Below are positions 1 through 19,074 of a DNA stretch of 64,000 bases, piece by piece; the first letter of the stretch is position 1, and each line of letters opens with the position of its first letter. The position numbers and the translations under genes are program-made. Under the pieces are notes generated by a model. That model made no database searches, was not told the origin of the DNA, and worked only from the letters and a program-made list of their open reading frames with translations. This stretch comes from Acidimicrobiia bacterium (lineage in GTDB: Bacteria; Actinomycetota; Acidimicrobiia; Spongiisociales; ZC4RG35). Where the stretch lies: NCBI GenBank assembly GCA_041744375.1, contig JBGTLA010000130.1, positions 11,443 to 75,442 of the forward strand. The letters run 5' to 3'.

Positions 1-61
1 CCGCATGAAGCGACCCCATCGCACCCACGCCTACCACGGCACACCGAACCGGCTCCAGCAC
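1..61 (-). CDS. 5' end of a Gfo/Idh/MocA-like NAD(P)-dependent oxidoreductase running off the window edge
   Basis: Not in the ORF track. Manual translation of the minus strand from GTG at 61 gives VLEPVRCAVVGVGAMGSLHA, a GxGxxG Rossmann start typical of this family. Divergent from the U32-like gene. Confidence 0.6.
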   Translation of the reverse strand, partial: MLEPVRCAVVGVGAMGSLHA

Positions 62-91
62 ATCTCCTTGCTCGCGCCGCCATGGTAGGGA

Positions 92-108
92 GTTGCGCTG
101 TCCGCATC
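92..108. promoter_or_regulatory. Putative IclR operator, site 1 (GTTGCGCTGTCCGCATC)
   Basis: Matches GTTGCG-N5-CGCAAC with 1 mismatch; lies in a divergent intergenic region, upstream of a TTGACG at 123-128. Confidence 0.6.
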
Positions 109-197
109 AATGATGCGAAAAATTGACGACGGGGGTTGGGGCATGTTGAATGCGGTCTGCGCTGACCGGCGACCCGCAGCAGAGGAGATCAGGCAGG

Positions 198-1097
198 GTG
201 GAACAAAGCGAAGTGGCTGCCCGGCTGGGGATATCGCCGAAACCTGCCTCCATATTGCGCTTCGCCGACGGCGCCTCGTTTCGGATCGAGATTCCGAGCG
301 TAGAAGGGCCCCAAGTGATGGCGGCCGTTCTCGAAGAGGCAGACCACCTCGGAGTGGTCGTTAATCGGGTATCCCAAGGCAGCGGAGCGATGCTCCTCTC
401 CGGGGCCGAACTCGACGAGATGGCAGCGATGGGCCGGGACTCCAGTATCGAGGTGTGCTTGTTTGTTGGCCCTCGTGCTGGATTCGACACGGGTGTGTTG
501 CCACACACCGATTCTGCTCACTACGCAGCAATCCGAGGGCTGCGCCAGCTCGGACACGCCGTCACCGACGTGGTGCGGGCGGCTGAACACGGCATCCGCA
601 GCTTCCTCGTCGCCGACATCGGACTGCTGTCGCTGCTCAGCAACCTCCAAGCAGACGGAGACCTGCCCGAAGATTGCCAATGGAAGGTTTCTGCCTACTT
701 CGGGGTGTTCAATCCAGCGACCGTCGCCATCCTCTCAGAACTCGGTGCCTCTACCGTCAACGTTCCCGCAGATCTCTCCTCGGGGGACCTCGCGGACCTT
801 AGGGCCACCGTCGATCTGCCCCTCGACATCTACATCGAGGCTCCAGACGGAATGGGAGGGACCATCCGTATCGCTGAGCTTGCCGATTTGGTTCAAGTCG
901 CCGCACCGATGCATGTGAAGTTCGGTCTTAGGAACGGTCCCTCGGTGTATCCCTCTGGTCACCATCTCGCCAACATCGCCATGCTGGCGGCACGGGAGAA
1001 GGTGCATCGGGCAGCGATCGCGCTCGAATGGATGGAACGGAGCGGAACCTCGGCCACGCAGTCTCTGCCTCACCCAAGGCCCGGGGTACCGAGGTGA
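198..1097 (+). CDS. Peptidase U32-like TIM-barrel protein of unknown function
   Basis: RFADGASFRIEIPSVEGP...RVSQGSG...LFVGPRA...PLDIYIE...KFG resembles a conserved family usually labelled 'U32 family peptidase'. GTG 198 follows AGGAGA; the ORF track start is 150. Confidence 0.6.
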   Translation: MEQSEVAARLGISPKPASILRFADGASFRIEIPSVEGPQVMAAVLEEADHLGVVVNRVSQGSGAMLLSGAELDEMAAMGRDSSIEVCLFVGPRAGFDTGVLPHTDSAHYAAIRGLRQLGHAVTDVVRAAEHGIRSFLVADIGLLSLLSNLQADGDLPEDCQWKVSAYFGVFNPATVAILSELGASTVNVPADLSSGDLADLRATVDLPLDIYIEAPDGMGGTIRIAELADLVQVAAPMHVKFGLRNGPSVYPSGHHLANIAMLAAREKVHRAAIALEWMERSGTSATQSLPHPRPGVPR

Positions 1098-1885
1098 CCA
1101 GTCGCAGCCATCGATTCGCTGAGCTGACCCGGTCCGAGCTGTCCGACCGAGCCCAAGCAGCTTTACTGGTGATCCCCGTCGGAGCGGTCGAACAGCACGG
1201 TCCCCACCTCCCGACTGGGACCGACTCTTTTCACGCAACTCATGTGGCAGAGCAATCCGCCATGCAGGCCGCAGCCTCCATCGACGTGATCGTGGCTCCC
1301 ACCGTTTCGTATGGCTCCTCGCATCACCATCTTCCGTTTGGTGCCACGCTCTCGTTGCGAACCGAGACCCTGTATTCGGTACTGATGGAACTCGGGGAAT
1401 CAGCCAGGCTGAGCGGATTCCGCAAACTCTTCTTCCTCAATGGGCACGGCGGCAACCACGAAATAGCCCAACTCGCTGCCCGGGACCTGGCCTTGGAAGG
1501 ACCCCTGCACGCCGGTTCGGGATCGTGGTGGGCGATGGCGTACCAAGAACTGGTCGGAGACGGTGCGGCCGACGGCGGTCGATTGCCCGGGCATGCCGGG
1601 CGCTTCGAAACGGCCATCAGCGCCGCCCTCGACCCCGACGCCGGCACTTCTCCTCCCCCGGCCCACAGCTCTTACCAAGAGAGTGATCGCCACGCCTACT
1701 CCCCCGTCTATCGGGCTGAGTTTCATGACAGCTGGAGGAGGCTCGATGGCTACACGGACTCGCCTGGCTCCGCCTCACGTGAGGACGGACAGCGCTGGCT
1801 CGGGATTGCTGTTGAGGCTGTGAAAAGGCTCCTGATCGAATTCTCCGATGCTGCCGACGTCATCGATCAGCGCCCGAGCCGATGA
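1094..1885 (+). CDS. Creatininase / mycofactocin MftE-like amidohydrolase
   Basis: PVGAVEQHGPHLPTGTD, NGHGGN and GHAGRFET motifs; GTGA overlap with the upstream stop. Confidence 0.9.
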   Translation: MTSRSHRFAELTRSELSDRAQAALLVIPVGAVEQHGPHLPTGTDSFHATHVAEQSAMQAAASIDVIVAPTVSYGSSHHHLPFGATLSLRTETLYSVLMELGESARLSGFRKLFFLNGHGGNHEIAQLAARDLALEGPLHAGSGSWWAMAYQELVGDGAADGGRLPGHAGRFETAISAALDPDAGTSPPPAHSSYQESDRHAYSPVYRAEFHDSWRRLDGYTDSPGSASREDGQRWLGIAVEAVKRLLIEFSDAADVIDQRPSR

Positions 1886-1898
1886 TCATGTGGAAGGA

Positions 1899-3062
1899 AT
1901 GAAGATGGACCCGATTGTGCAAGCCGCATCCCGTATCGACACCGACCGAGTCGTCGAGTTGGCTTCGGCCTTCTGCGCCACGCCCTCACCGCGAGGTGAG
2001 GAACGTTGGCTGGCTGAGGTGATCGCCGAGGTACTCGATCGGCCCGGAATCGATTTCCACATCGAAGACGTCGTGGCGGGTCGACCCAACGTGATCGCCC
2101 GGGTTGCCGGGAACGGCGAGCGGGCTCCACTGGTCCTCAACGGGCACATGGATGCCAGTGTGCATCCCGGTCCGTGGCAGAACGATCCGGCCGACCCGTG
2201 GGTGTCGGAAGGCCGTCTCTTCGGAGGTGGGGTCACTGACATGAAGGGCGCGTTGGCGGCGATGGTGGCCGCGGTGGAGGCGGCGAGCGAATGGCCATCG
2301 CTACCGGGCGATCTGGTGCTCCACGCCGTCATGCACCATGACACCATCGGCTTGGGCGCCAAGTACGCGTTGGCGAGCGAGGGCCCGCATCGCGGCTTTG
2401 GTATCTGTGGTGAACCGTCTGGTCTCAGTATCCACACCGGCAATGGCGGCGCTCTCAAGTTCGAGGTCAAACTCATGGGTCGCTCCGCTCACGTGTCCCG
2501 ACTGGAGGAGGGAGTCGACGCTCTCGAGGCCGCAGTCGATGTGTACCAGGCCATCAAGGCACTTGCTTGGGAACATGAAGCGTGCGAACGGCTGCCCGAC
2601 CTTCCGCGTCTCCAGGTCGGAGAACTCCAGGCCGGAACCGCACCGGCGGCAGTGGCCGACACGGCCATCGTGAGAGGCGACCTCCGGACCGTTCCCGGCA
2701 TGGACCGGGTGAGCGTGAAGCGAGCAATCGAGGAAGCAGTATCTGAGGCGTGTCCCGGTGGGGTGACCTCGCGCGTGCGAATCATTGCCGTCCAGCAGCC
2801 TTTCCTCGGGGCCACCGATGGACCATTCGTGGAGGCCCTGTCCGCCGCACACACCCAGATAAGAGGGACCGCTCCCAAGGTCACCAACGAATTGCCGGGA
2901 CAGGCGTTCGTCACCGACGCAGCCGACATGGCTGCCGCCGGACTCGAGACCGTTGTCTATGGGGTGGGCGACTGGCACTACGCACCGAACGAATGGGTCG
3001 ACATCGGGGAACTCGCCGACTCAGCGCGGGTATATCTGGCAGTAGCGGCCGCGTTTGCCTGA
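1899..3062 (+). CDS. M20/ArgE-DapE family metallohydrolase with a non-canonical active site
   Basis: GRPNVIA, NGHMD, GVTDMKG, GEP and GRSAH motifs; HHD where DEE is expected. Confidence 0.85.
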   Translation: MKMDPIVQAASRIDTDRVVELASAFCATPSPRGEERWLAEVIAEVLDRPGIDFHIEDVVAGRPNVIARVAGNGERAPLVLNGHMDASVHPGPWQNDPADPWVSEGRLFGGGVTDMKGALAAMVAAVEAASEWPSLPGDLVLHAVMHHDTIGLGAKYALASEGPHRGFGICGEPSGLSIHTGNGGALKFEVKLMGRSAHVSRLEEGVDALEAAVDVYQAIKALAWEHEACERLPDLPRLQVGELQAGTAPAAVADTAIVRGDLRTVPGMDRVSVKRAIEEAVSEACPGGVTSRVRIIAVQQPFLGATDGPFVEALSAAHTQIRGTAPKVTNELPGQAFVTDAADMAAAGLETVVYGVGDWHYAPNEWVDIGELADSARVYLAVAAAFA

Positions 3063-3071
3063 TCGCGCAGC

Positions 3072-3920
3072 ATGATCGTCGACGTTCACACCCACGTAGG
3101 CGAGAGCGAACACTACAGCGGCGAGTTCGTAGCCGACCTCGAGGCGTCGTGGGATGAAGTCAAGTGGTCGGCGACCAGCCTCGAAGACCACTGGCAGGCC
3201 GCTGCCTCGGTCGATAGGGCGATAGTGCTCGCCGTCGATGCTCCCGCTGCGGGGTTCGTGGTGCCCAACGAGTATGTGAGCGCCTACGTGGCCGACCATC
3301 CCGACAAGTTGATCGGGTTCGCTTCAGTGGATCCGAATCGCCCCGACGCTGTTGAGCTCTTGGACCGCGCCGTCGGCGAACTCGGATTGCGCGGGCTCAA
3401 ACTCGGACCCATCTACCAACGATTTGACCCACTGGGTGACGAGGCGGCTGCCGTCTGGGGGCATGCCCAACAGCTCGGCCTTCCCGTGATCTGTCACCAG
3501 GGCACGACATTCCTGCGACAGGGCCCTTTGGAGCTCGCTCAACCTGTCACCCTCGACGCGGTTGCTCGTCGCTTCCCGGATCTCATCCTGGTCATTGCCC
3601 ATCTGGGCCACCCGTGGTGCGAAGAGACAATGGCCGTCATCCGCAAGCACCCCCATCTCTATGCGGACATATCCGCCCTCCACACCCGGCCCTACCAGCT
3701 CTACCGCGCTCTCGTCGCCGCCGAGGAGTACCGGGTGTTCGGCAAGCTTCTGTTCGGAAGCGACTTTCCCTTCGGGACCCTCGAGACGACTTTGGCGGGC
3801 CTCGAGCACGCACGGAGAATCCCTGAGGGAACATCGCTCCCCAAGATTTCAGCCGCCGCCATCGACGAGATCGTTCACCGTCCGTCCCTCGAGTTGCTCG
3901 GGCTCGAAGGAGACCGATGA
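3072..3920 (+). CDS. Amidohydrolase_2 family metal-dependent hydrolase
   Basis: DVHTH, GLRGLKL, HQGTTF, AHLGHPW, YADISA and FGSDFP motifs. Confidence 0.9.
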   Translation: MIVDVHTHVGESEHYSGEFVADLEASWDEVKWSATSLEDHWQAAASVDRAIVLAVDAPAAGFVVPNEYVSAYVADHPDKLIGFASVDPNRPDAVELLDRAVGELGLRGLKLGPIYQRFDPLGDEAAAVWGHAQQLGLPVICHQGTTFLRQGPLELAQPVTLDAVARRFPDLILVIAHLGHPWCEETMAVIRKHPHLYADISALHTRPYQLYRALVAAEEYRVFGKLLFGSDFPFGTLETTLAGLEHARRIPEGTSLPKISAAAIDEIVHRPSLELLGLEGDR

Positions 3921-5029
3921 GGATCACATCGGTTGACGTGACGGCGGTGTCGATTCCGATCGACCCAAAGAGGATGATCACCAGCGCGCGGGGATCGCAC
4001 GCCTTTTCGCCTTTCGCCATCGTGGAGATCGGCACTGACGAAGGTCATGTCGGCCTGGGTGAGGTGTCGGCAACACCCTTTTGGAGCGGCGAAGACTCGG
4101 GCACAGCCACCCACGTGATCCGGCACTACATCGCGCCCGTCATCCTGGGCGAGTTGGTATCCCCTCTCCACCTCGCCGAGACGGTCGGAGCTGCGGTGGC
4201 CGGGCATCACTTCACGAAGGCGGCCGTCGAAATGGCGATATGGGATCTTCATGGCAAGCGGCTCGGTAGCCCTCTTTACGAGCTGTGGGGAGGTCCATCC
4301 AGAGAGCAGATCCGCACCAAGTATTCAATCGGAGGCACCGACCCCGACTCTGCGGCCGAGACCGCGCGATGGGCAATGTCGCAGGGTTTCCGAGCACTCA
4401 AGGTGAAGGTCGCCACCGGAGATGACATTTCTCGCTTCGCTGCTGTTCGTGACGCAGCCGGACCTGATGTTCCCGTAGGGGTGGATGCCAACGGCGGTTG
4501 GACGCGCGCCCAGGCCGAGCGCATCGGTTGTGCTCTGGTAGAGGCCGGAGCTGCCTTCGTCGAACAGCCGCTGGTGTCTCATGACCTCGACGGCCTCGCC
4601 CGGCTCCGGGGTCGCATGGGGGTACCCATCGTGGCCGACGAGTCGGTTGGGACACCGACCGAGGCTGTCGCCGTGATCAGAGCTGGAGCTGCCGACCTCC
4701 TCTCCATCTACGTTGGCATGGCCGGCGGGCTCGCTGCCGCGCGGCAGATCGCTGGCCTCGCCTACGCAGCTGGCATCGGCTGGACCATCGGGAGCAACCT
4801 CGAATTGGGAGTCGGAATGGCCGCCCACCTCCAACTGGCATTCTCGGCTCCCGGCCTCGCCGACGACACAGTCCCATGCGACATCCTCTCGCCCTTCTAT
4901 TACGAGGGTGACATCTCGACAGGGATACCCGTTGCCGCCGGTCACGCCACTCCCCCAGATGGGGCGGGTCTCGGTGTGACTCTCGACGCCGACGCGATGG
5001 AACGATTCCGAGTTACAAACGAGCCATGA
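3917..5029 (+). CDS. Mandelate racemase/muconate lactonizing enzyme (enolase superfamily) protein
   Basis: GLGE, AVEMAIWDLHGK, KVK, DAN, EQP, DES, GSNLE and GAGLGV motifs. Confidence 0.9.
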   Translation: MRITSVDVTAVSIPIDPKRMITSARGSHAFSPFAIVEIGTDEGHVGLGEVSATPFWSGEDSGTATHVIRHYIAPVILGELVSPLHLAETVGAAVAGHHFTKAAVEMAIWDLHGKRLGSPLYELWGGPSREQIRTKYSIGGTDPDSAAETARWAMSQGFRALKVKVATGDDISRFAAVRDAAGPDVPVGVDANGGWTRAQAERIGCALVEAGAAFVEQPLVSHDLDGLARLRGRMGVPIVADESVGTPTEAVAVIRAGAADLLSIYVGMAGGLAAARQIAGLAYAAGIGWTIGSNLELGVGMAAHLQLAFSAPGLADDTVPCDILSPFYYEGDISTGIPVAAGHATPPDGAGLGVTLDADAMERFRVTNEP

Positions 5030-6141
5030 GGATCAAGGCAATAGCGGCGACTGCCGTAAGAGTCCCTCGTCTCACCCGCCTGTTGCCAAAGACGGCCCAC
5101 GGCGAGGTTCGCGCCAGCGAGTACGTAGTCATCGAGGTACGCACCGACAACGGGCTCATCGGACTCGGCGAGGTCACCTGCGCAGCCGGCTGGAGCGGCG
5201 AAACTGCGGCCGACTCGATCCGGTTGCTGTCGGAGCGCCTCGAGCCGGCCCTCTCAGGAACCGACCCCTGTGACCGCTTCACCCTCGCCGAAACTCTCAC
5301 CCGTTACGTCACTGGGCGTCCATTCCTGGCCGCGGCCATCGAGATGGCCTGCCTCGATCTAGAAGGCCAAGACACCGGTCGACCCGTCGGGGATCTGCTC
5401 GGTGGTGTCGTTCGTTCGACGTTCACCACCAAAATGGTCCTGCCGGCGCGGCGACCCGATGAGGTGGCGACAATGGCCGCCGACGCACTGTCCATGGGGG
5501 TCGCTGCCCTCAAAGTCAAAGTGGGCCTCGACCCAGCCGAGGATGTGCACAGGGTGCAGGCGGTTCGCGAGGTAGCGGGCTTCGAAATACCTCTAACCGT
5601 CGACGCCAACGAGGGATGGACACTCTCTGACGCCCGAAAGGCGCTCGAGGCGCTGAACGACACCGACCTCCTGGCAGTAGAACAGCCGTTGCCACGTCAC
5701 GAATGGGAGGCGATGGCCGAGCTCAGAACAGAAATGTCGCCCCACTTCATCGGCGACGAGTCGATCTGGACGCAAGACGACCTCGCCGCAGCTGCTCACC
5801 ACGGCAGCTTCGACGGCGTAAGCATCTATCCGGGTAAGGTCGGAAGCCTCGCCGGCACTGTCGAGCTCGCCCACCGTGCCGCCCAGCTCGGACTCGAGGT
5901 GTCGTTCGGATCCAACCTGGAGTTGGGTATCGGAGCGTCCGCCTTGGCTCACACGATGGCGGCAATCCATCCCACTCCTCGAGAAATCCCGAGTGACTTG
6001 ATCGGTCCCCTATACTTCGAGTCGCCGCTCATCACGGACGCGAGCTTCGTCGGATGGTCAAGCTCATGCCTTCCCGCCGGGTCCGGGCTGGGTGTAGAAC
6101 TGGACCGCCGCGCCCTCAACCAGTACGCGTTCCAGCCGTAA
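5026..6141 (+). CDS. Second MR/MLE enolase-superfamily protein (tandem paralogue)
   Basis: GLGE, KVK, DAN, EQP, DES, SIYPGK, GSNLE and GSGLGV motifs; ATGA overlap with the upstream gene. Confidence 0.9.
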   Translation: MRIKAIAATAVRVPRLTRLLPKTAHGEVRASEYVVIEVRTDNGLIGLGEVTCAAGWSGETAADSIRLLSERLEPALSGTDPCDRFTLAETLTRYVTGRPFLAAAIEMACLDLEGQDTGRPVGDLLGGVVRSTFTTKMVLPARRPDEVATMAADALSMGVAALKVKVGLDPAEDVHRVQAVREVAGFEIPLTVDANEGWTLSDARKALEALNDTDLLAVEQPLPRHEWEAMAELRTEMSPHFIGDESIWTQDDLAAAAHHGSFDGVSIYPGKVGSLAGTVELAHRAAQLGLEVSFGSNLELGIGASALAHTMAAIHPTPREIPSDLIGPLYFESPLITDASFVGWSSSCLPAGSGLGVELDRRALNQYAFQP

Positions 6142-6194
6142 TGAGACCAGATGCTCCGAGGCGGCGCCGAGCTGGGGAAGGTTGGCGGTGAGCT

Positions 6195-6932
6195 CTACAA
6201 CGCCTGATAGGGCTCGACTAGCTCGAGAAGTCTGGGGACGATCCGCTCCACGTCGTCGTACGTGAATCTGTGCGATGGTCCCGTGGATGACAAGGCAAGG
6301 ATTGGCGCCATAGGCGCGAAACGCATGGCCACCGCCACCGCAACCGTCCCAGGACGACCCTCCTCGTTGTTGATGGCGTAACGCCGCTTCTTGGTCAGCT
6401 CTACCTCTTCGACGAGCGCCTCGGCCGTCGTGACAGTGGTCGGAGTATTCGGGAGGAGATCGAGCCTCTCTACGACCTCTGCGAGCTGTCCGTTTGGGAG
6501 AGTGGCGAGGTAAACCTTCCCCACTGCTGTGGAGTGCAACGGATCTTCGGTTCCGACCTCGCAGGTGACCTTGAGCGGCTGATAGCTATCCACCCGCCCC
6601 ACCACCAGCATTCGATCGCCATGAGGAACAGACACGTGGACAGTTTCGCCGGTGAGATCTCGGAAATCTTCCGCCAACGCCAGTGCCTTGTGGAGCTCGA
6701 GGCCCTCGATGGCGGCCTGACCGATGGAGATGAGTCGCGGACCAATGGAGTATTGAGTTCTGGAGTGATCGAGTTCGACCCAATCCAGGCTCCGCAGAGT
6801 GCTCAAGAGTCGCAGGGCATTCGACTTGTGGACGCCGATCGCTTGGGCAACGTCGTCGAGCCGGGCGGTCTCATGCTCGGCCAGATATTCGATGGCCTGA
6901 ACCACTCGCTCTGCACTCTGTAACGTCGCCAC
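6195..6932 (-). CDS. IclR family transcriptional regulator
   Basis: N-terminal HTH (QSAERVVQAIEYL...GVHKSNALRLL) plus GETVH, LHSTAVGK and EEGRPG IclR motifs. GTG 6932 follows GAGGAG; alternative ATG at 6971. Confidence 0.92.
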   Translation of the reverse strand: MATLQSAERVVQAIEYLAEHETARLDDVAQAIGVHKSNALRLLSTLRSLDWVELDHSRTQYSIGPRLISIGQAAIEGLELHKALALAEDFRDLTGETVHVSVPHGDRMLVVGRVDSYQPLKVTCEVGTEDPLHSTAVGKVYLATLPNGQLAEVVERLDLLPNTPTTVTTAEALVEEVELTKKRRYAINNEEGRPGTVAVAVAMRFAPMAPILALSSTGPSHRFTYDDVERIVPRLLELVEPYQAL

Positions 6933-7032
6933 GGCCCGGATCTCCTCAACGCTGAAGTTCGAAGATTTCATGCTAACCCAGAGAGGTCTGGTTCACCATC
7001 ACCCCCAGGCGGGAGCACGCTCATCGATGCTG

Positions 7033-7061
7033 TTGACAAACGGACACCACGACTCCACAAT
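7033..7061 (+). promoter_or_regulatory. Sigma70-type promoter of the ABC transporter operon
   Basis: TTGACA (7033-7038), 17-nt spacer, CACAAT (7056-7061). Confidence 0.65.
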
Positions 7062-11233: not shown

Positions 11234-12175
11234 ATGACAGCAGACGTGACAATCGTCAACCGAGATCGCGTGGCGTACGCCTTCGATTCCGCCCTCGAAC
11301 CCGTTGCAGCCGTCGAACCTCCGGCCCGCCTCGAAGTGGCAACACATGATGCCCGAGCGGGGGCGCTCCTCGACCGCCAATACGCCAGCCCCTACGACCT
11401 TCCACTTCCCACCGCCGACAAGAGCAACCCGATCACGGGACCCATAGATGTGATAGGTGCCGAGGTGGGAGACGCTTTGATCGTCGACATCGCCGCCATC
11501 AACCTCGACGCGGTCGGGTGGTGCGGAGGGCATGCCTACGTGGGACCAACCCGACCCGGCTTCATCAAGCGACCGATAGGGAGGACATGTCGGGTCATCG
11601 ACGATCACATCGAATTCGGAAGCGATCTGATGATCCCCATCTCCCCCATGATCGGCTGCCTCGGCACGGCTCCCGCAGGAACGGGCGTATCCACCGCCCT
11701 GGCGGGTCGACACGGGGGCAACATGGACCAGCGAGTCGTGACTGTCGGTGCTCGGGTATACCTTCCGGTGTCTGTTCCGGGCGGACGACTGTTCGTCGGC
11801 GACGTGCACGCCGCCCAAGGTGATGGCGAGCTGTCAGGGGTGGCATTGGAGATCGGCGCTCAGGTTGAACTGGTCGTAGGGGTCGCCTCGGGGCTCTCGC
11901 TCGATTGGCCGTGGGTAGCTCTCGGCGATCGGATCATGATCCTCACATCAGGTCCCACATTCGAAGAGGCTCGAGCCGAGGCCGTCGAAACGATGATCCG
12001 CGCCTTCGAACAGGTCCTCGGCATCGAACCGGCCGATGCTCTGGGTTTGCTGTCGCTCGTTGGCGACCTCCGCGTTGGCCAGGCATACGGTGCCGCCGAT
12101 GTGACGTTGAGACTCGAGATACCGGCTTCACTCGGCGTGTCCCCAGTCGGATTCGACGGAAAGGCGAGACCTTGA
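11234..12175 (+). CDS. Acetamidase/formamidase family protein
   Basis: NPITGPI, PMIGCLGTAP, HGGNMD and GDVHAAQGDGELSG motifs. Confidence 0.92.
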   Translation: MTADVTIVNRDRVAYAFDSALEPVAAVEPPARLEVATHDARAGALLDRQYASPYDLPLPTADKSNPITGPIDVIGAEVGDALIVDIAAINLDAVGWCGGHAYVGPTRPGFIKRPIGRTCRVIDDHIEFGSDLMIPISPMIGCLGTAPAGTGVSTALAGRHGGNMDQRVVTVGARVYLPVSVPGGRLFVGDVHAAQGDGELSGVALEIGAQVELVVGVASGLSLDWPWVALGDRIMILTSGPTFEEARAEAVETMIRAFEQVLGIEPADALGLLSLVGDLRVGQAYGAADVTLRLEIPASLGVSPVGFDGKARP

Positions 12176-13062
12176 TCGTCGATGTCCACACGCACCTCGG
12201 GTGGTACCCCGAACACATCTCCGAAGAATTCGCCGCTGAGGCCCTCGCCTCCAAGAAGGTGAAGCTCGCCATGTCGGGAGGGAAAGCCAACGCCGCCTCC
12301 CTCGACCTGCACTCATACGACTCCACCCCGGATCAGCACTGGGACGCCACGCAGACAGCAGACAAGACGGTGGTGTTCGGGCTGCAGGCCAAGGCGGTCG
12401 GCTACTGGGTCCCCAACGACATCGTGGCTTCCTATGTGGCCGAACATCCCGACCGTCTCCTCGGATGGGCTTCCGTGGATCCATCCGACCCGTCATGCAT
12501 CGATGAGCTCGAACGGTGCTACCACGACCTCGGCCTCCGCGGGCTGAAACTAGGCCCCGCCTATCAGCACTTCGACCCAACAGGCTCCACACCCCGCCCG
12601 CTCCTCGCCGCCTGCCAAGCTCTCGGTATCCCTGTCATCTGGCATCAAGGGACCACCTTCCCCAGTCGCGCAAGGCTCGCCTGGGCCAATCCCCTTCAAC
12701 TCGAGGACGTGGCGATGGCGTTTCCCGACCTGCCGATGATCGTCGCCCACCTGGGTCACCCTTGGGAGACGGACCTCATCGTCCTCATGCGCAAAGCTCC
12801 CAACCTCTACGCCGACATCTCAGCTGTGCACTACCGCCCGTGGCGCTACTGGCAGGCGATGGTCACCGCCATGGAGTACGGAGTAACCGACAAGTTGCTG
12901 CTGGCTTCAGATTTTCCTTCGGGAACGATCGACCATGTGATCGACGGTCTTCGTGGGGTCAACGATCCGGTGGAGAACACCCGCCTGCCTAAGGTGCCGG
13001 CCGAGGTCCAAGACCGGATCATTCATGAGAACTGGAAGCCGCTCTTCCCGGACTGGGCGTAG
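12172..13062 (+). CDS. Amidohydrolase_2 family protein (paralogue of 3072-3920)
   Basis: DVHTH, GLRGLKLGP, HQGTTF, AHLGHPW, YADISA and SDFP motifs; TTGA overlap start. Confidence 0.9.
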   Translation: MIVDVHTHLGWYPEHISEEFAAEALASKKVKLAMSGGKANAASLDLHSYDSTPDQHWDATQTADKTVVFGLQAKAVGYWVPNDIVASYVAEHPDRLLGWASVDPSDPSCIDELERCYHDLGLRGLKLGPAYQHFDPTGSTPRPLLAACQALGIPVIWHQGTTFPSRARLAWANPLQLEDVAMAFPDLPMIVAHLGHPWETDLIVLMRKAPNLYADISAVHYRPWRYWQAMVTAMEYGVTDKLLLASDFPSGTIDHVIDGLRGVNDPVENTRLPKVPAEVQDRIIHENWKPLFPDWA

Positions 13063-13077: not shown

Positions 13078-14664
13078 TCACGGGGCAAGGAAACGGCTCA
13101 ACACGTTCGCCGTCACACGGGATACGTCAGAATCGACAGCTATCGAGCAGGTGTACGAGATGGAGCCCACCGTGAACACCTCCCCACCGGAAGGAAACTC
13201 GATGTGCAGCATCTCGGCTCCTCCGTCGTCCGGGTTGGTTCCTTTGGCGAGCAGTTTGGCCTGGGGCGGTGTGGACGGGGTTCTCTTGTCGGTCTCGTGA
13301 CCGGAAGCTCCGCCTATGGCGCGACGATCCAAAGAAACCGACCCGAACAGGTCCCCTGCGCCGAGGCTGGTTCCCGCGAACGCCCAATGTTGTGGCTCCA
13401 ACACGCGATAGGGGGCGCCAGTCTCGTATCCGCTCATGGTGGTCGTGGTCCCAAGCAGTGACGCCTCCGACTCGCCTCGCATCCCAAAACGGCTCTCGTA
13501 GTCCGGGCCTCGATCGTGATAGTTCTCGTTCATCACCCTCATCCGATCATCGGGTAGGAGTTCGACCTCGCAATTGATTCCGTTTCCGCCCAGGTACATC
13601 AGCTTCCCGCCGTCATCGACGACCCAGCTCTTCAGCCGGTCATACATCGAGCGGGTCCAATACTCGGGGTGGGTACTGATGATGAGGACTCTGTATCGGT
13701 GAAGGTCCATGACTCCGGCATCGAACTGGGTCTCGGCGTACAGGTCATGCCCGAACCCCTCCCTTTCGAGCCACCCGAGCAGCCTCCACTCCGCCGGCGC
13801 CACGTGCTCAACCCCGCGAGTGATCATCGGGTCGGTGATCAGTTCATCTTCCAGCGTCGAGTTGAGAGGCTCGGGCCGATCGAACGACAACGGCTCGTAA
13901 GAAGCCGCGTCCCATGGCTGTTGAGCTGGATCGCTGAACCACACGTCTTCTTGGCGGGCATTGACGGTGGGCGTGGCAGGCAGTTTCTTGGCAGCAACGT
14001 AGTTGCTTCTCCCTCCGAAATCGTTGTAGGCGTTCCAGGTGATGTTGGAAGCAAGCACCGCTGTCGGAGCCGTCGGCCGTTCGGGGGCCACCACCCAGGG
14101 AAACGAGAAGAACCTCCCCTCGTCGTCACCCACGTGGACGTAGTACAGACCTGATTCCGGAGCGACGAGTCGAGTTCGGGGATCGAACGACGGAAACAGG
14201 TAGCCGTGCTCGTTCCACGCCACACCGTCCCGAGCGACGTCGCTGTCAGGAAGTATCTGGCGGATCGACCCGCCAGGATGATCGTCGAACCAACCCAGGT
14301 CAGCTACGAGCTGGCGCTCCCATCCATATCGCCACAGCGAGGCGTGGTAACGAGCGCCGGCATGGATACGAACCTCTGCCGTATCACCCGTTTGTACGGC
14401 CTTGGGCCACATGTACCCGTAGGGACCATCTGACAGGAGCCGCAGGCGGTGCACCGAGCCGTCACCTACCTCCAAGCGGACACGCTTGCGACCGTATCCC
14501 AACTTGGCCACCACGACGTCGTACGCCCCGGGCTCCATGTCGCCATGGATGGCTCCCGATGGACAAGACCTCAGTACCAGGGATCGGCCATCCGCACCGG
14601 TGAACTCCACGGCCGCATCATGCACGGCCATATCCCATTCATCGCTCACGTATCCAACCAGCAT
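13078..14664 (-). CDS. N,N-dimethylformamidase large(beta)-subunit-like protein with an N-terminal carboxypeptidase-regulatory-like domain
   Basis: TWNAYNDFGG, SFDRP, LLGWLEREG, HPEYWT, YLGGN, GHETD and VFTVGSI motifs; ATG 14664 follows GAGGT. Confidence 0.8.
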   Translation of the reverse strand: MLVGYVSDEWDMAVHDAAVEFTGADGRSLVLRSCPSGAIHGDMEPGAYDVVVAKLGYGRKRVRLEVGDGSVHRLRLLSDGPYGYMWPKAVQTGDTAEVRIHAGARYHASLWRYGWERQLVADLGWFDDHPGGSIRQILPDSDVARDGVAWNEHGYLFPSFDPRTRLVAPESGLYYVHVGDDEGRFFSFPWVVAPERPTAPTAVLASNITWNAYNDFGGRSNYVAAKKLPATPTVNARQEDVWFSDPAQQPWDAASYEPLSFDRPEPLNSTLEDELITDPMITRGVEHVAPAEWRLLGWLEREGFGHDLYAETQFDAGVMDLHRYRVLIISTHPEYWTRSMYDRLKSWVVDDGGKLMYLGGNGINCEVELLPDDRMRVMNENYHDRGPDYESRFGMRGESEASLLGTTTTMSGYETGAPYRVLEPQHWAFAGTSLGAGDLFGSVSLDRRAIGGASGHETDKRTPSTPPQAKLLAKGTNPDDGGAEMLHIEFPSGGEVFTVGSISYTCSIAVDSDVSRVTANVLSRFLAP

Positions 14665-14724: not shown

Positions 14725-14741
14725 GTTGCGCTCACCGCAAC
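14725..14741. promoter_or_regulatory. Putative IclR operator, site 3 (GTTGCGCTCACCGCAAC)
   Basis: Perfect inverted repeat (extends to 7-5-7) in the divergent DMFase-like/EamA intergenic region. Confidence 0.7.
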
Positions 14742-14780: not shown

Positions 14781-15692
14781 ATGCTCCCTGACCGACGCCA
14801 CCCAGCCGGCATCAGCGACGACCGGGCGTGGGGTCTGGTTGTGGGTGCACTGGGCATCGTCATCATCAGTCCCGACGCGCTGATCATTCGTCTCCTCGAA
14901 GTCGACCCGCGCACCATCTTGGGGTGGCGCGGATCGCTGACCGGCCTCGGCCTGTTTGTGCTGCTACGCCTCCGATACGGAGTGGACCTGCGCGATAAGG
15001 TGCGAATCGTCGGAAAGCCCGGGATCACCGTTCTCGCCCTCAGCGTGATCAGCAATCAGCTGTTCGTGTACTCCGTTGCCGTCGGCTCGGCGGCCACTAC
15101 CCTCATCACCATGGCCGCAGCCCCCATCGTTGCGGGGATACTGGCCTGGATCGCCATCGCCGAGCGACCTCCCGCCCGGACGGTGGCTGCCGCTGTGGCC
15201 GTCGGGATCGGGGTTGCCATCCTGATGGGGGCTCCCTCGGGAGGAGAACCTGAGATCGCCAAGCTGGCGGCCGGACTGGGCATGACGGCCATGGCGGCCA
15301 AGCTGACATTGATGCGTAGATCCCGCGCGGTCGATATGGTCCCGGCGATAGCCGCGGGCCAATTGGTCATAGGCCTCATACATTTGCCGGCAGCCAAACT
15401 CGACCTCCCTCTCGGGGACATCTCGCTACTGGTCGTGTCGGGGCTGATCGCCCTCCCGGTGGCGACGATGCTGTTCACGACTGCACCGCGCTACCTGCCC
15501 GCCGCTCAAGTCGGCCTGTTCCTGCCACTGGAAACCGTCCTCGGGACATCGCTGGTCTGGTTGGTGGCCGGCGAAGCACCCGGCCAAGGAGCCGCGATAG
15601 GCGGAACGGTGGTGATCGCCGCCCTCGTCGTCCACTCATGGGCCTCGCTGAGGACCAAGACAGCAACTCTCGTGGCGGCAATCCCAGAGTGA
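14781..15692 (+). CDS. DMT/EamA family transporter
   Basis: About 10 hydrophobic segments; SPDALIIR, APRYLPAAQVGL and LETVLG motifs. TAGATT-N6-ATG suggests a leaderless start. Confidence 0.88.
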   Translation: MLPDRRHPAGISDDRAWGLVVGALGIVIISPDALIIRLLEVDPRTILGWRGSLTGLGLFVLLRLRYGVDLRDKVRIVGKPGITVLALSVISNQLFVYSVAVGSAATTLITMAAAPIVAGILAWIAIAERPPARTVAAAVAVGIGVAILMGAPSGGEPEIAKLAAGLGMTAMAAKLTLMRRSRAVDMVPAIAAGQLVIGLIHLPAAKLDLPLGDISLLVVSGLIALPVATMLFTTAPRYLPAAQVGLFLPLETVLGTSLVWLVAGEAPGQGAAIGGTVVIAALVVHSWASLRTKTATLVAAIPE

Positions 15693-15745: not shown

Positions 15746-15762
15746 GTTGCGCTGGCCGCACT
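15746..15762. promoter_or_regulatory. Putative IclR operator, site 4 (GTTGCGCTGGCCGCACT)
   Basis: 2 mismatches to GTTGCG-N5-CGCAAC; upstream of the PTE-like gene. Confidence 0.5.
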
Positions 15763-15805: not shown

Positions 15806-16855
15806 TTGGAAAATGTCGTCAGAACGGTTCGGGGACCGGTGTCCCCCGAGGCGCTCGGGCCGGTCATGACTCACGAGCACCTGTTCATGGACTCTCGCCA
15901 GTTCTGGGACCCCTCCGGCCTGGCCGACCCCGCGCAAGGGGAACTACCCTTCGAAGCTCGCTTCAACGGCCTCGCCCGCTGGGACGGTCACGGCTTCCGA
16001 GACAACCTCTGCCTCCTTCCCGACGACGACTACCAACTCGTCTCGACCGAGGTATCAGACTTCTTCACGGCCGGAGGACCCGGGGCGTGCCTCGTCGACC
16101 TGACGACGGGAGGCCTGCGGCCGTCGCCCTCTCACCTGCGGAGGCTGGCGGAGGACCTCGACGCTCACATCGTGGCTGGGCACGGAATGTACGTACACGC
16201 TGCCCACCAACCTTGGGTCTGCAATTCGTCCGTACCGGCGCTCACCGAGTTCCTGCTCCAGGAGGCAGGCGAAGGGATCGCAGGCACCGATGTGCTGCCC
16301 GGCGTCATCGGTGAGATCGGTACCTCAGAAGAACTGGAACCGTGTGAAGAGAACGTGTTGCGGGCAGCTGCACGAGTGTCTCAATCGACCGGGCTACCCA
16401 TGAACATTCACATGCATCCACCGCAGCTCCCGGTCGCCATGCGGATACTCGACGTCTTAGAAGAGGAGGGACAGAACCTCGAGAGGGTCAACCTATCTCA
16501 TCTCGACGAGATCTACGACCTCTCATATCACGAGACACTCCTAGCGCGGGGCGTGATCACCGGCTTCGACAGCTTCGGCCAGGACGGCTACTTCAGTCCC
16601 ATTTGGAAGTCTCTCGCCGACAACACAAAGGCGCGCCTGATGGTCGAACTGATTCAGCGCGGCTACGGCAGTCAGCTGACAATGGCACAAGACGTCTGCA
16701 AGAAGCACCACTTGCTGACCTTTGGGGGCCTCGGGTACTCCCATGTCATCGCGCGAGTCGTACCCCGTCTTCGTGAGGTGTTTGGAGTTGACGATGCCAC
16801 CATCGACCAGTTGCTGGTGCGTACCCCGCGACGCTGGCTGTCTGTGCCCGCGTGA
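15806..16855 (+). CDS. Phosphotriesterase-related (PHP-type) metallohydrolase
   Basis: RTVRGP, THEH, GVIGEIG, NIH, SHLD and AQDVC motifs; GGAGG RBS. Confidence 0.9.
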   Translation: MENVVRTVRGPVSPEALGPVMTHEHLFMDSRQFWDPSGLADPAQGELPFEARFNGLARWDGHGFRDNLCLLPDDDYQLVSTEVSDFFTAGGPGACLVDLTTGGLRPSPSHLRRLAEDLDAHIVAGHGMYVHAAHQPWVCNSSVPALTEFLLQEAGEGIAGTDVLPGVIGEIGTSEELEPCEENVLRAAARVSQSTGLPMNIHMHPPQLPVAMRILDVLEEEGQNLERVNLSHLDEIYDLSYHETLLARGVITGFDSFGQDGYFSPIWKSLADNTKARLMVELIQRGYGSQLTMAQDVCKKHHLLTFGGLGYSHVIARVVPRLREVFGVDDATIDQLLVRTPRRWLSVPA

Positions 16856-16876
16856 GCCATTGGTCGGCGGCTGTCC

Positions 16877-18055
16877 TCACTCCGGAGTGAGGAACCCAAG
16901 AGCCGCCTCGGCGTAGACTCGACTCGCCGTCACGAGGTCGCTGATAGCGATGGACTCGTCCGGCTCCCCGTTCCAGTCACCGGGGCCGTAGATGGCGGTG
17001 GGGATACCGGCCCGGACCAGATCTGACGAGTCCGTCACGTACGCCGACATGGGGAGGCCGCGGCTCACCTGCGCCGGGCTGCCGGTCACGGCCTCGTGAG
17101 CCCGGCTGACGAGGCTCACCACCTCCCACGAGTCCTCCGCCCAGAACGGTCGTTGATATGACAAGCCGTCGACCTCTGCCCGAAACTCTGGGTCCTCGCT
17201 ACTGAGGCGAGCAATCAGGCGTGCGAGGTCGGATCGGAGACTGTCCTCCGTCATGCCGGGCACCGTCCGCACATCACCCTTCACCACGCATCGCTCAGCG
17301 GTCCGAGATGGGGAACCGCCCCCGGCGATGTCACCGAGGACAAGACGGGGCAGACCATCGACGTCATCCCACGGGGAATACGTGAGAGCGTCGAGGGAGA
17401 GGTCACCGAGTAGTTTCAGCATCTTCTCGATGGCGTTGACACCTCGGCGACTCGAGTGTTTGGCCAGTCCATAGGTGGTGACCTGGAACTGCCATGCTCC
17501 CCCATGGGCGAGCTGGAGTGCAAGATCGGTGGGCTCCCCGTTGATTGCGGCATCGATGGGCCGATCCCACGTGTCGAGGAAGAACTTGGTGCCGAGCCCG
17601 CACACGTTGTGATGGATCACTGCAGAGAGAACCAGCTCACCACCAAAGCCGTCCCGGCGCTCAGCCACCGCCTCGGCGGCCTTCACCATGCATGCGACGG
17701 CGGCTTTCATGTCGGTCAGCCCCAAGCCGTAGACCCGGCCATCGGCCACCGCTCCGTCATAGGGGTCCCGGGTCCAGGAACCGGTCGGAGCGGGAATGTC
17801 GGTGTGCCCGTTGAGGAGCAGGCGCCGCCCAGGCGCATCACCGGTGACCACACCGACAACGTTGAACCGGCCAGGGACGACCGGCTGGAGGCGAACCTCG
17901 TCAAAGCACGCCGACGCCCGCATGTAATCGGCGAGGAACCGGCCCAATTCCCCTTCATTGGGAATCTGGCTCGGGAACCGAGCGAGTTCGCTCGTGAGAC
18001 CCACCAACCCATCGACGTCAATCACCGGCGCATCACCGCCCACGCTGACCTGCAT
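16877..18055 (-). CDS. Second M20/ArgE-DapE family protein with a non-canonical active site
   Basis: GRFNVV, NGHTD, GLTDMK and GEPT motifs; HHN where DEE is expected and no C-terminal His. Confidence 0.85.
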   Translation of the reverse strand: MQVSVGGDAPVIDVDGLVGLTSELARFPSQIPNEGELGRFLADYMRASACFDEVRLQPVVPGRFNVVGVVTGDAPGRRLLLNGHTDIPAPTGSWTRDPYDGAVADGRVYGLGLTDMKAAVACMVKAAEAVAERRDGFGGELVLSAVIHHNVCGLGTKFFLDTWDRPIDAAINGEPTDLALQLAHGGAWQFQVTTYGLAKHSSRRGVNAIEKMLKLLGDLSLDALTYSPWDDVDGLPRLVLGDIAGGGSPSRTAERCVVKGDVRTVPGMTEDSLRSDLARLIARLSSEDPEFRAEVDGLSYQRPFWAEDSWEVVSLVSRAHEAVTGSPAQVSRGLPMSAYVTDSSDLVRAGIPTAIYGPGDWNGEPDESIAISDLVTASRVYAEAALGFLTPE

Positions 18056-18060
18056 CTCGC

Positions 18061-19047
18061 CTACCTCCCGTCCAAGTCAAGACTCGCTAGCTGTATGTCG
18101 CTTCGAGGGTCCACCACGTTTCGCAGCGGTAGATCAGCCAGCCAGCGCTCGACATTCTCGATCCAGTCGGCGCGCAGCGCCTCACCGATACCGGCAACAC
18201 GAGCTGCTGAGTGAGGTGATACGAGGACGTCGGGCCTCCGCCACAAGGCATGGTCCGACGGCAGAGGCTCCTGGCTGAACACGTCAAGTGCGGCGCCGCT
18301 GAGATGTCCGCTGTCCAAGGCCGTCATGAGGGCCACTTCATCGATCACGCCACCGCGACCGACATTCAGCAACACGGCACCGGGCGCAAGGGTCTCGATC
18401 TCTGCGAGGCCGAACATGCCTACCGTTGCAGGTGTGGCCGGGAGAGCGATGATCGCAGCTTCGGCGCCGTCGAGGGCGTCATGCAGACGCTCGGCGGAGA
18501 CTATCGCCCGGAAGGTACCATCGCCAGGACGGGCCGTTTGCCCCACTCCCATCACATCGGCGTCGAATGCTCTCAGAAGTCGTCCGGTCTGACTCCCGAT
18601 CGTGCCAACACCGAGCACTGCGACCTTCGTGCCCGAGAGCGAACGCCCCCTGCGAGGCAACCACTGGCCGAGGTCATGCAGTCGCACACTCTCCGGAATA
18701 CGCCTGAAGAGAGCGAGGAGAAGGGTCACGGCATACTCGGCGACGGGACCGCCCAATACCTCTCGAGCGTTGGTGACGACGATTCCGCGCTCGCTCAGTC
18801 CGGCAACATCCACGCCATCGAGGCCCGAGCCAGCGACATGGATCCACGTTACCGGGGTGGCGCTATCCCAATACTGAGCCACCCACTCTGCTCGGTACTC
18901 CCATAGAACGACTGCTGTCGCCTGGGGAAGAAACGCGGCCACCAGATCGGGCGAGTCGGCTGTTCTTACTTCGATCCCTGCGGGAGAAGGAAGAGCCGGA
19001 TCCTCTTCGCCCGGCCCCACGACAGAGATGACTACTGGCTTCACCAT
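18061..19047 (-). CDS. D-isomer-specific 2-hydroxyacid dehydrogenase
   Basis: GVGTIG, NVGRG, GAALDVF and SPHSA motifs. Confidence 0.92.
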   Translation of the reverse strand: MVKPVVISVVGPGEEDPALPSPAGIEVRTADSPDLVAAFLPQATAVVLWEYRAEWVAQYWDSATPVTWIHVAGSGLDGVDVAGLSERGIVVTNAREVLGGPVAEYAVTLLLALFRRIPESVRLHDLGQWLPRRGRSLSGTKVAVLGVGTIGSQTGRLLRAFDADVMGVGQTARPGDGTFRAIVSAERLHDALDGAEAAIIALPATPATVGMFGLAEIETLAPGAVLLNVGRGGVIDEVALMTALDSGHLSGAALDVFSQEPLPSDHALWRRPDVLVSPHSAARVAGIGEALRADWIENVERWLADLPLRNVVDPRSDIQLASLDLDGR

Positions 19048-19057
19048 GCGGAGGATA

Positions 19058-19074
19058 GTTGCGAAGAGCGCAAG
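19058..19074. promoter_or_regulatory. Putative IclR operator, site 5 (GTTGCGAAGAGCGCAAG)
   Basis: 1 mismatch to consensus; abuts a minus-strand TATCCT -10-like element (19052-19057) just before the ATG at 19047. Confidence 0.6.

Follow-up and report, generated by a model that had tools for sequence, protein, structure and literature searches.

A probable IclR-controlled regulon for the import and breakdown of an amide, lactam or lactone compound in an Acidimicrobiia bacterium

Introduction

What do about two dozen genes for hydrolases, isomerases, dehydrogenases and an importer accomplish together when they appear to be governed by one operator? The question is raised by a 64-kb stretch of DNA (the window) from an Acidimicrobiia bacterium, positions 11,443–75,442 of contig JBGTLA010000130.1 (C130), so that position 1 of the window is C130:11443. 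The genome (G000) consists of 190 contigs with a total length of 3.70 Mb (3,695,676 bases), is 98% complete and has a mean GC content of 65%. An earlier description made from the letters of the window (the sequence-only reading) had proposed a 19-kb, single-operator catabolic system of about 19 genes at positions 1–19074, built from paired enzymes with altered active sites.

Our answer is that the locus is, with a probability of about 0.6, a single-regulator catabolic regulon for the import and breakdown of an amide, lactam or lactone compound. The substrate is probably an amino-acid derivative; our best guess is a compound of amino-acid or peptide-like nature that is N-acylated or cyclised.

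Results

Extent of the Regulon and Its Operator

The gene list of the sequence-only reading proved to be real, with 18 genes found at 1–19074 in Pfam and NCBIfam scans of the long open reading frames (ORFs), but the true unit is larger and comprises about 24 genes over about 24 kb (C130:6168–30516). About three quarters of it lies within 1–19074, and the remainder, at C130:6168–11503, extends upstream of the window with six further genes: the MLE-subgroup enolase MLEc, a Gfo/Idh/MocA oxidoreductase, an RraA-like aldolase, a RidA-like protein, a 261-aa MBL-like protein and a second Gfo/Idh/MocA oxidoreductase. MLEc (C130:6168–7259, reverse strand) forms the left end of the regulon, and a 2-hydroxyacid dehydrogenase with operator F forms the right end. 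In all, the regulon holds about 17 enzymes (hydrolases, isomerases and dehydrogenases) and an importer.

The M20, Amidohydro_2 and MLE families do occur twice each at 1–19074, as had been claimed, and the pairing is incomplete as a description, in that a third enolase and an altered MBL-like protein lie outside the window. The claim of two dehydrogenases within 1–19074 did not hold, since the interval contains only one: a short-chain dehydrogenase (SDR) gene at 19498–20313 lies beyond it, and just 61 bases of the Gfo/Idh/MocA gene lie inside. No protein of the window gene set reached an NCBIfam (equivalog) cut-off; therefore, all protein names used here are family-level only.

The motif that we scored is the 17-bp palindrome GTTGCG-N5-CGCAAC, with the eight-base core TGCG-N5-CGCA. 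Operator B (92–108; GTTGCGCTGTCCGCATC, one mismatch) lies between the divergent Gfo/Idh/MocA and U32-like genes, operator C (7080–7096; GTTGCGGCTATCGCAAC, exact) between the IclR gene and the importer operon, and operator D (14725–14741; GTTGCGCTCACCGCAAC, exact) between the divergent DMFA2-like and EamA genes. Operator E (15746–15762; GTTGCGCTGGCCGCACT) has two mismatches with the core kept and is located upstream of the phosphotriesterase-like (PTE-like) gene, while operator F (19058–19074; GTTGCGAAGAGCGCAAG, one mismatch) is located 11 nucleotides upstream of the 2-hydroxyacid dehydrogenase start. The five promoter regions that the sequence-only reading had listed thus carry the motif if mismatches are allowed (two exact, two with one mismatch and one with two), and a sixth operator was found at C130:9002, 2.4 kb upstream of the window and 14 bp before the RraA-like gene.

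With at most one mismatch, the window contains four sites against 0.21 expected, a count reached in none of 100 shuffles. With at most two mismatches the count rises to seven (3.48 expected), a number that 9 of the 100 shuffles also attain and that is not significant on its own; two of these sites, at 16816 (inside the PTE-like gene) and 35270, are not intergenic cluster sites and are probably due to chance. The exact motif occurs only twice in the 3,695,676-base genome, both times in the regulon, and five of the 17 genome-wide sites with at most one mismatch fall within the 21.5 kb of C130:9002–30500. The core occurs 44 times in the genome and six times in the 24.4-kb regulon block (0.29 expected), and all six of these core sites are intergenic.

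A second genome, that of an Acidimicrobiia metagenome-assembled genome (MAG; G041), carries the motif with an intact core at five orthologous intergenic positions. The counterparts of operators B (L087:3005) and D (L008:9922) each have two mismatches with the core kept, that of operator C (L008:17457) is exact and that of operator F (L008:4792) has one mismatch; for operator E no counterpart was found in G041. Because the motif statistics and the five orthologous positions agree, we regard the operator as common to the whole block and the block as one regulon, and the single operator of the sequence-only reading is borne out.

The protein that presumably binds the palindrome is the IclR-family transcription regulator encoded at 6195–6971 on the reverse strand (HTH_IclR, PF09339, 4.1e-11; IclR_C, PF01614, 5.5e-31), whose G041 ortholog is 76% identical. 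It scored below the NCBIfam cut-offs of named regulators (BhcR, 131 against 350; PcaR, 115 against 285; KdgR also below). The one strong promoter-like site, TTGACA-17-CACAAT at 7033–7061, ends 19 nucleotides before operator C, an arrangement that would fit a roadblock on the importer operon.

Conservation of the Block

The best match to the DMFA2-like protein (see below) was found in G041 (locus L008), where 21 of the 24 regulon genes are matched in synteny at 49–84% identity (21 of 25 queries, the 25th being the SDR gene, which is outside the regulon). As in G000, the block in G041 is bounded by MLEc on one side and the 2-hydroxyacid dehydrogenase on the other. Co-occurrence across taxa, which the sequence-only reading had put forward as support for one pathway, was thus observed for nearly the whole set in one genome of the same class, and elsewhere for modules of two or three genes only.

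These modules recur in four other phyla or domains. The DMFA2-like scan, made with one genome per species, gave 77 loci, only four of which were at 52–72% identity, the others being at 34% or less. Outside Acidimicrobiia, the DMFA2-like gene is accompanied by AH2b in L009, by MLEc in L010 and by an MLE and an Amidohydro_2 gene in L011. Seven loci whose DMFA2-like protein is at least 41% identical were compared: G000, G041, L009, L010, L011, L098 and L099. L009, in an Acidobacteriota MAG (DMFA2-like 56%), contains an AH2b ortholog (67%), an IclR gene, a DAO-family oxidase, an Asp/Glu/hydantoin racemase, hydantoinase A and B, an S15 X-Pro dipeptidyl-peptidase, a DHDPS-family protein and MFS and TonB-type transporters. 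In L010, from a Chloroflexota MAG, the DMFA2-like gene (52%) comes between an SBP_bac_5-type ABC system and an MLEc ortholog (63%), in that order. L011, also from a MAG (56% for the best of three tandem copies), has a Tyr-type MLE, Amidohydro_2, GntR, an SBP_bac_5 ABC system, an M28 peptidase and a GNAT protein. The two plasmid loci are L098 on Microvirga sp. VF16 pMVF16-1 (50.7%), where the gene comes after an M20 gene, an SBP_bac_5 ABC system and a signature amidase, and L099 on Haloferax gibbonsii pHGLR3 (41.6%), with IclR, an ABC importer, an M81 peptidase, a CtBP-type 2-hydroxyacid dehydrogenase and a class IV aminotransferase.

The recurrent theme over the seven loci is an importer together with several amide or peptide hydrolases. 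An ABC importer is present in the fetched stretch of six of the seven, further amide hydrolases (M20, M28, M81, S15, signature amidase, hydantoinase A/B, Amidohydro_2) in all seven, and an IclR gene, an MLE enolase and Amidohydro_2 in four each.

For M20a and MLEc, the longest contigs of the metagenome homologs have four identical values (22514, 18887, 36644 and 11811), which suggests that the two subfamilies share metagenome contigs. In plasmids, there was no M20a match at E ≤ 1e-40, and the MLEc matches were ordinary dipeptide epimerases at 30–35% identity.

Enzymes with Altered Active Sites

The alteration of active sites described by the sequence-only reading was confirmed for two families, namely His-His in M20 proteins against Glu-Glu in ArgE, and Tyr in MLEa and MLEb against the strand-6 Lys. 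M20a (1848–3062, forward strand), an ArgE/DapE-like M20 metallohydrolase, carries a His-His pair instead of the Glu-Glu that serves catalysis and metal binding, and the pair aligns with Glu-Glu of E. coli ArgE (7rsf); the same is true of M20b (16877–18055, reverse strand), which is 34% identical to M20a and has a G041 ortholog at 73%. In an alignment of 122 sequences (120 database homologs at no less than 54% identity and the two window copies), His is invariant at the second position (122 of 122), and the first position is mostly His, with Tyr in 14 sequences and Asp, Asn and Trp in one each. The remaining ligand motifs (His, Asp, Glu, His) are kept in the family alignment, and the M20 orthologs in G041 keep His-His.

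The MLE-subgroup enolase-superfamily proteins MLEa (3917–5029, forward strand; no ortholog in G041) and MLEb (5026–6141, forward strand; G041 ortholog 58%, also with Tyr) have Tyr at the strand-6 Lys position. This Tyr is found in MLEa, MLEb, MLEc, both G041 copies and the L011 copy, and both it and the Lys-x-Lys motif are kept in 123 of 123 sequences, including 120 of 120 database homologs of MLEc. The five best solved relatives (2qde, 1jpm, 2p88, 3jva and 3ct2) all have Lys at this position; of these, 1jpm is L-Ala-D/L-Glu epimerase, 2p88 N-succinylamino acid racemase and 3jva dipeptide epimerase. The MLE proteins match solved members at E values of 1e-42 to 1e-52, contain the MR_MLE N- and C-terminal domains, keep the Asp/Glu/Asp metal-ligand motifs and score 194 and 155 against the cut-off of 335 for muconate cycloisomerase. 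In the MLE subgroup, loss of the strand-6 Lys disfavours two-base racemisation. We know of no Tyr-type member with a characterised function, and a literature search for Tyr-type MLE enzymes found no report.

The MBL-like protein (261 aa; C130:9702–10487, reverse strand) has no Pfam match. Its predicted structure (mean predicted local distance difference test score, pLDDT, 77; predicted template-modelling score, pTM, 0.84) has the alpha-beta/beta-alpha MBL fold and superimposes on N-acyl-homoserine lactone (AHL) lactonases and 4-pyridoxolactonase with Foldseek TM scores of 0.76–0.81 and E of about 1e-17. At the place where four distant homologs have SHLHHDH (the HxHxDH motif), it has TPLELYT, and the motif is lost. 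It is nevertheless the most conserved protein of the cluster, with 84% identity to G041 over residues 1–196, the changed motif included. The match to the G041 ortholog (L087:3730–5118) breaks off at residue 196 of the 261, and the frame stays open beyond that point, which could reflect a frameshift or an assembly error in the MAG.

Taken together, the alignments indicate that the altered sites are conserved subfamily signatures under selection and not the result of decay.

The DMFase-Like Protein

The DMFA2-like gene (13078–14664, reverse strand) encodes a 528-aa amidohydrolase of the family of dimethylformamidase (DMFase) and beta-Phe acylase (PF20254, DMFA2_C, 1.9e-53). The ORF is open to 14781; we place the gene at 13078–14664 because homologs begin at ORF residue 40. 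In a sequence alignment, residues Y252, Y295, H371, E373 and N400 (ORF numbering) match Y399, Y440, H519, E521 and N547 of DMFase. According to those passages of the DMFase study that describe the site, Y399, Y440 and E521 form a 2-Tyr-1-Glu iron site and H519 and N547 are essential (PMC7686228). Four of the five residues are kept in 62–64 of 65 family members. The second Tyr is present in 10 of 12 close orthologs in a careful alignment and in 7 of 65 members in a quick alignment of the wider family; the loop that holds it aligns poorly across that family. As far as the alignment can tell, the active site of this protein is not altered, and the iron-site residues are kept.

The predicted structure (pLDDT 93.7) matches 8huy, 8i59 and 8i5a, which are N-acetyl-(R)-beta-phenylalanine acylase according to their PDB titles, and the Paracoccus DMFase entries 6lvb, 6lvd and 6lve with Z scores of 30–31, a root-mean-square deviation (rmsd) of 2.5–2.7 Å and 27–28% identity. 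For 6lvb, 6lvd and 6lve, Z is 30.3–30.7 and the rmsd is 2.6–2.7 Å over 384–389 residues; the next unrelated fold has a Z score of 14. The family profile matches both solved relatives (E values of 7.7e-68 and 7.9e-59), and both solved members of the family are amide hydrolases.

The large subunit of DMFase has three domains and about 760–775 aa; of the 528 aa of the DMFA2-like protein, about 384 align with the 775-aa chain. DMFase of Paracoccus needs a small subunit of about 15 kDa for activity. At the locus, the gaps on the two sides of the DMFA2-like gene are 15 bp (to AH2b) and 116 bp (to EamA), and no small-subunit gene fits beside it there.

Three tandem DMFA2-like paralogs are found on one contig at L011:6256–12751. 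The second copy (10203–11765) is without the second Tyr and has GGCG where the other copies have GGNG; it may be catalytically different.

Importer, Transporter and Other Enzymes

The importer operon begins with a PotD/PotF-like substrate-binding lipoprotein (7122–8285, forward strand; SBP_bac_6), whose ORF is open from 7077 with an ATG at 7122. It matches the solved polyamine-binding proteins PotD and PotF in the PDB at 1e-13 to 2e-18 and remains below the equivalog cut-offs (PotD, 64 against 582 bits; PotF, 44 against 636). It is followed on the same strand by two ABC permeases with BPD_transp_1 domains (8313–9212 and 9209–9997; G041 orthologs 79% and 75%) and an ABC ATPase with a C-terminal TOBE_2 domain (9994–11142, GTG start at 9994; G041 ortholog 72%). 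An EamA-family (DMT) membrane transporter is encoded at 14781–15692 on the forward strand (PF00892; G041 ortholog 61%). An importer does stand beside many C-N and C-O hydrolases, and confirmation was also obtained for the Pfam families of the creatininase, acetamidase-like, DMFase-like, PHP-like, Pot-type importer and EamA proteins.

Two enzymes share the importer operon, a short FmdA/AmdA-family amidase-like protein (11234–12175, forward strand; PF03069, 1.6e-26), which matches the PDB entries 5ubu, 3tkk, 2ii1 and 2f4l ("putative acetamidase/formamidase") at 1e-30 to 1e-33, and AH2b, the second Amidohydro_2 protein (12172–13062, forward strand, TTG start; G041 ortholog 79%, and 67% in L009 beside the DMFA2-like gene). 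The FmdA-like stop codon overlaps the AH2b start codon at 12172–12175 (TTGA), with GGAAAGG just upstream, which suggests that the two genes are translationally coupled. AH2a, the first Amidohydro_2 protein (3072–3920, forward strand; PF04909, 3.6e-33; G041 ortholog 67%), belongs to the TIM-barrel metal hydrolase/decarboxylase family, has an N-terminal HxH motif and is 46% identical to AH2b; the MLE proteins are 30–38% identical to one another.

The creatininase-family metal amidohydrolase (1028–1885, forward strand; PF02633, 6.9e-54) has an uncertain start, with an alternative GTG at 1094. Its best PDB match is 3no4 (8e-18), and it scored 78 against 235 for creatininase (TIGR04448), 111 against 172 for MftE and 64 against 245 for IolN. 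The phosphotriesterase-homology (PHP-like) metal hydrolase, which is the PTE-like protein named above (15806–16855, forward strand; PF02126, 1.4e-53), reached no NCBIfam cut-off; its best solved relative is 3k2g (1.8e-50), with the "igeig" segment aligned, and it has Glu at the place of the carboxylated Lys of PTE. The D-isomer-specific 2-hydroxyacid dehydrogenase (18061–19047, reverse strand; PF02826 and PF00389; G041 ortholog 49%) was likewise below the NCBIfam cut-off.

At the left edge of the window, positions 1–61 hold the first 20 codons of the Gfo/Idh/MocA oxidoreductase on the reverse strand (C130:10484–11503; Pfam GFO_IDH_MocA, 2e-25), a member of the same regulon with a G041 ortholog at 57% identity. 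The gene at 150–1097 (forward strand) had been called U32-like; its PF01136 score of 22.0 bits is just under the cut-off of 22.4, and it gave no tblastn match in G041. The assignment is a weak one, which a protein atlas backs as a lead only.

Flanking DNA

To the right of the regulon, positions 19498–27446 form a block of about 55% GC, compared with the 65% mean of the genome. It contains the SDR gene, two ABC ATPases, two Liv-type permeases, a MarR regulator and a Peripla_BP_6 binding protein, and ends with an ISL3 transposase fragment at 26691–27446. No operator was found inside it and no counterpart in G041, and it looks like a separately acquired insertion adjoining the regulon. Immediately to the left of the regulon are pieces of an MMPL-family membrane protein in two overlapping frames (C130:1909–3086 and 3086–6168), possibly with a frameshift, and then about 3 kb with no convincing ORF. 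Near the contig start, an FHA-domain adenylate/guanylate cyclase (C130:645–1604) is not related to the regulon. A search of Rfam at the gathering score gave no match in the window or the upstream 11.6 kb, and riboswitches thus offer no hint of the ligand.

Discussion

Proposed Mechanism

We propose that the IclR protein would bind the 17-bp palindrome in six intergenic regions and keep seven transcription units shut, and that repression would be relieved when the substrate or an early intermediate binds to its effector domain. The compound would then be imported by the PotABCD-like ABC system. The FmdA-like amidase and AH2b, co-transcribed with the importer, and the DMFase-type amidohydrolase, encoded beside that operon on the opposite strand, are the candidates for the early steps. 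The creatininase-like, PHP-like and MBL-like enzymes may open lactam or lactone rings, the two His-His M20 enzymes may strip acyl or aminoacyl groups, and the three Tyr-type MLE enolases would abstract a proton alpha to a carboxylate. Because these enolases keep only the Lys-x-Lys side, one-base eliminations or cycloisomerisations are likelier for them than two-base racemisation. The two Gfo/Idh/MocA oxidoreductases, the D-2-hydroxyacid dehydrogenase, the RidA-like deaminase and the RraA-like aldolase could convert the skeleton to central keto acids, and EamA would possibly export a by-product. The genes, the motif with its enrichment, the synteny and the conserved residue changes are direct observations; the binding of the repressor, the order of the steps and the class of substrate are inferred. 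Rhizoferrin-type polyamine siderophores, aminocyclitols (by analogy with IolN), AHL signals, opines and hydroxyproline derivatives were considered as substrates and dropped.

Several observations weigh against one regulon for one compound. The gene set is not fixed, as U32-like, MLEa and RidA are not common to G041, and apart from G000 the whole set turned up in a single genome, likewise from Acidimicrobiia. Among 40 relatives there was no close DMFA2-like ortholog, the best other match being at 33% (E value 1.4e-23). In 400 other genomes of the phylum, M20a and MLEc had no close homolog at E ≤ 1e-70 among the best four to five candidates scored per genome, and the MBL-like protein gave only five distant matches at 26–29% identity in a 400-genome phylum sample. 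Judged from this lack of close homologs in the relatives and the phylum samples, the block is patchily distributed. Promoter-like sites were not enriched (two against 3.1 expected), and the terminator scan was likewise not above chance. The type of importer varies, being PotD-like in G000 and of the SBP_bac_5 type in L010, L011 and L098, which argues against one substrate common to all loci with a DMFA2-like gene. The PotD-like binding protein suggests a cationic amine and fits a neutral N-acyl amino acid poorly, and about 11 hydrolases seem to exceed the apparent need of any single small substrate.

Alternative Explanations

The alternative that we take most seriously, though we consider it doubtful, is that a single IclR protein co-regulates a toolbox of several independent short routes. 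These would share one importer, and each would deal with a different compound from a group of related amides, lactams or lactones. The routes would be, just as tentatively, the FmdA-like protein with AH2b and the DMFA2-like protein; the creatininase-family protein with M20a, AH2a and an MLE; Gfo/Idh/MocA with the MBL-like and RraA-like proteins and an MLE; and M20b with the 2-hydroxyacid dehydrogenase. Such an arrangement is consistent with the age of the paralogs (34% identity for M20, 46% for AH2 and 30–38% for MLE), which fits parallel specificities, with the recurrence of just sub-modules beyond Acidimicrobiia (L009, L010 and L011), with the difference in gene content between G000 and G041, and with seven separate transcription units, each with its own operator. 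It does not account well for a single importer and a single regulator, nor for the way in which the same 21 genes, between the same end genes, have stayed together in two genomes with proteins that are now about 70% identical. The data do not distinguish parallel routes from a branched pathway. That the grouping and the palindrome arose by chance, with no functional unit behind them, is effectively refuted: the count with two mismatches allowed, which is all that speaks for it, is outweighed by the counts for one mismatch and for the core, the intergenic position of all six sites, the five orthologous motif positions in G041 and the synteny of 21 genes.

The family names of the proteins (creatininase, DMFA2_C, PotD-like, muconate-cycloisomerase, PcaR/PcaU and ArgE/DapE) might suggest a divergent copy of a characterised pathway, such as that for creatinine, dimethylformamide (DMF), polyamines, beta-ketoadipate (muconate, with PcaR), or an N-succinyl-amino-acid racemase with an M20 desuccinylase. 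We disfavour this and rate it as very improbable, as all NCBIfam models scored far below cut-off, and among the cluster ORFs scanned there was no dioxygenase, sarcosine oxidase, methylamine-utilisation gene or succinyltransferase; for beta-ketoadipate in particular, the 24 cluster ORFs scanned contained no ring-cleavage dioxygenase and no enol-lactone or thiolase step. Moreover, the MLE proteins lack the second Lys needed for two-base racemisation, the M20 proteins lack the catalytic Glu, and the DMFA2-like protein has 528 aa against 775 in the DMFase large subunit, with no room for a small subunit beside it. A literature search found no matching cluster, in keeping with the sequence-only reading, which recognised no characterised pathway with this gene set. 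It is just as improbable that the block is anabolic or serves salvage, and that it tailors or recycles a secondary metabolite or a peptide of the cell envelope instead of feeding on a nutrient. In favour are the EamA exporter and the occurrence of MLE-type enzymes and M20 peptidases in murein-peptide recycling too; against this, the block has no synthetases, ligases, transferases or carrier proteins, the high-affinity-type ABC importer and the IclR regulator are typical of catabolic loci, and the RraA-like aldolase and the RidA-like deaminase point to breakdown to keto acids.

Significance

The architecture of the locus is ordinary, IclR-controlled catabolic islands being common. What is unusual is the presence of three conserved non-canonical enzyme subfamilies in one block, together with a DMFase-family enzyme with the full residue signature in a natural uptake context. 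The regulon is clean and conserved, its operator can be read directly from the sequence, and two of the three altered subfamilies have more than 100 database clusters and no assigned function. Identification of the substrate would annotate hundreds of metagenomic homologs. The plasmids pMVF16-1 of Microvirga sp. VF16 (778313–779914) and pHGLR3 of Haloferax gibbonsii LR2-5 (around HfgLR_RS19720) offer counterparts in cultured organisms, and homologs of M20a or MLEc are present in Nocardioides strains.

The abstract of the preprint of the DMFase authors states that DMF itself is not known in nature (bioRxiv 10.1101/2019.12.17.879908). This locus and its counterparts in cultured organisms make the question of the natural substrates of the DMFase family testable. 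DMF, the best-known substrate of the DMFase/beta-Phe-acylase family, is man-made. A bolder idea, which we consider unlikely, is that the natural job of the family is to hydrolyse the hindered or tertiary amides of naturally occurring amino-acid derivatives that are N-acylated, N-alkylated or cyclised, and that the altered subfamilies represent new specificities evolved for the pathway. Examples would be N-acyl-prolines, N-acyl-beta-amino acids and proline-containing diketopiperazines, and the subfamilies concerned would be the Tyr-type MLE proteins, the His-His M20 proteins and the MBL fold without HxHxDH. To our knowledge, the enzymes that break down proline-containing diketopiperazines are largely unknown. 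If the idea is true, the locus would be the first genomic context to show the natural role of the family.

Comparison with Known Systems

Returning to the regulon that we prefer, its layout resembles the IclR-regulated catabolic clusters of PcaR/PcaU, KdgR and BhcR in that the regulator gene is divergent from a transporter operon, a palindrome is present in each target promoter region, and the regulator has the HTH_IclR and IclR_C domains. It differs from them in its six operators over seven units, its approximately 17 enzymes and a regulator that reaches no named-subfamily cut-off. The importer has the four components of the PotABCD and PotFGHI polyamine importers (a binding protein, two permeases and a TOBE-domain ATPase), but it is placed amid amide hydrolases and not polyamine-catabolism genes, and its PotD score is far under the cut-off.

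The DMFA2-like protein shares with the large subunit of Paracoccus DMFase and with beta-Phe acylase the same fold over about 384 residues, and its iron-site residues are identical to those of DMFase. It is, however, about 250 residues shorter than these enzymes (772–776 aa); the aligned core leaves out about 78 N-terminal residues of the model, and roughly half of each solved chain is without an equivalent in it. Its context, unlike that of DMFase, is a regulon of an importer plus hydrolases and not one of methylamine utilisation.

Among the altered enzymes, M20a and M20b have the catalytic and dimerisation domains of the ArgE/DapE M20 deacylases, in which Glu-Glu provides the general base and a metal ligand, but they carry His-His instead and score below all NCBIfam cut-offs. 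The MLE proteins share both domains, Lys-x-Lys and Asp/Glu/Asp with the MLE subgroup (muconate cycloisomerase, 1jpm, 2p88 and 3jva) and differ from it in the replacement of the catalytic strand-6 Lys by Tyr in all three copies, with no equivalog cut-off reached. The MBL-like protein has the fold of the MBL-fold lactonases, whose HxHxDH metal motif is absent from it.

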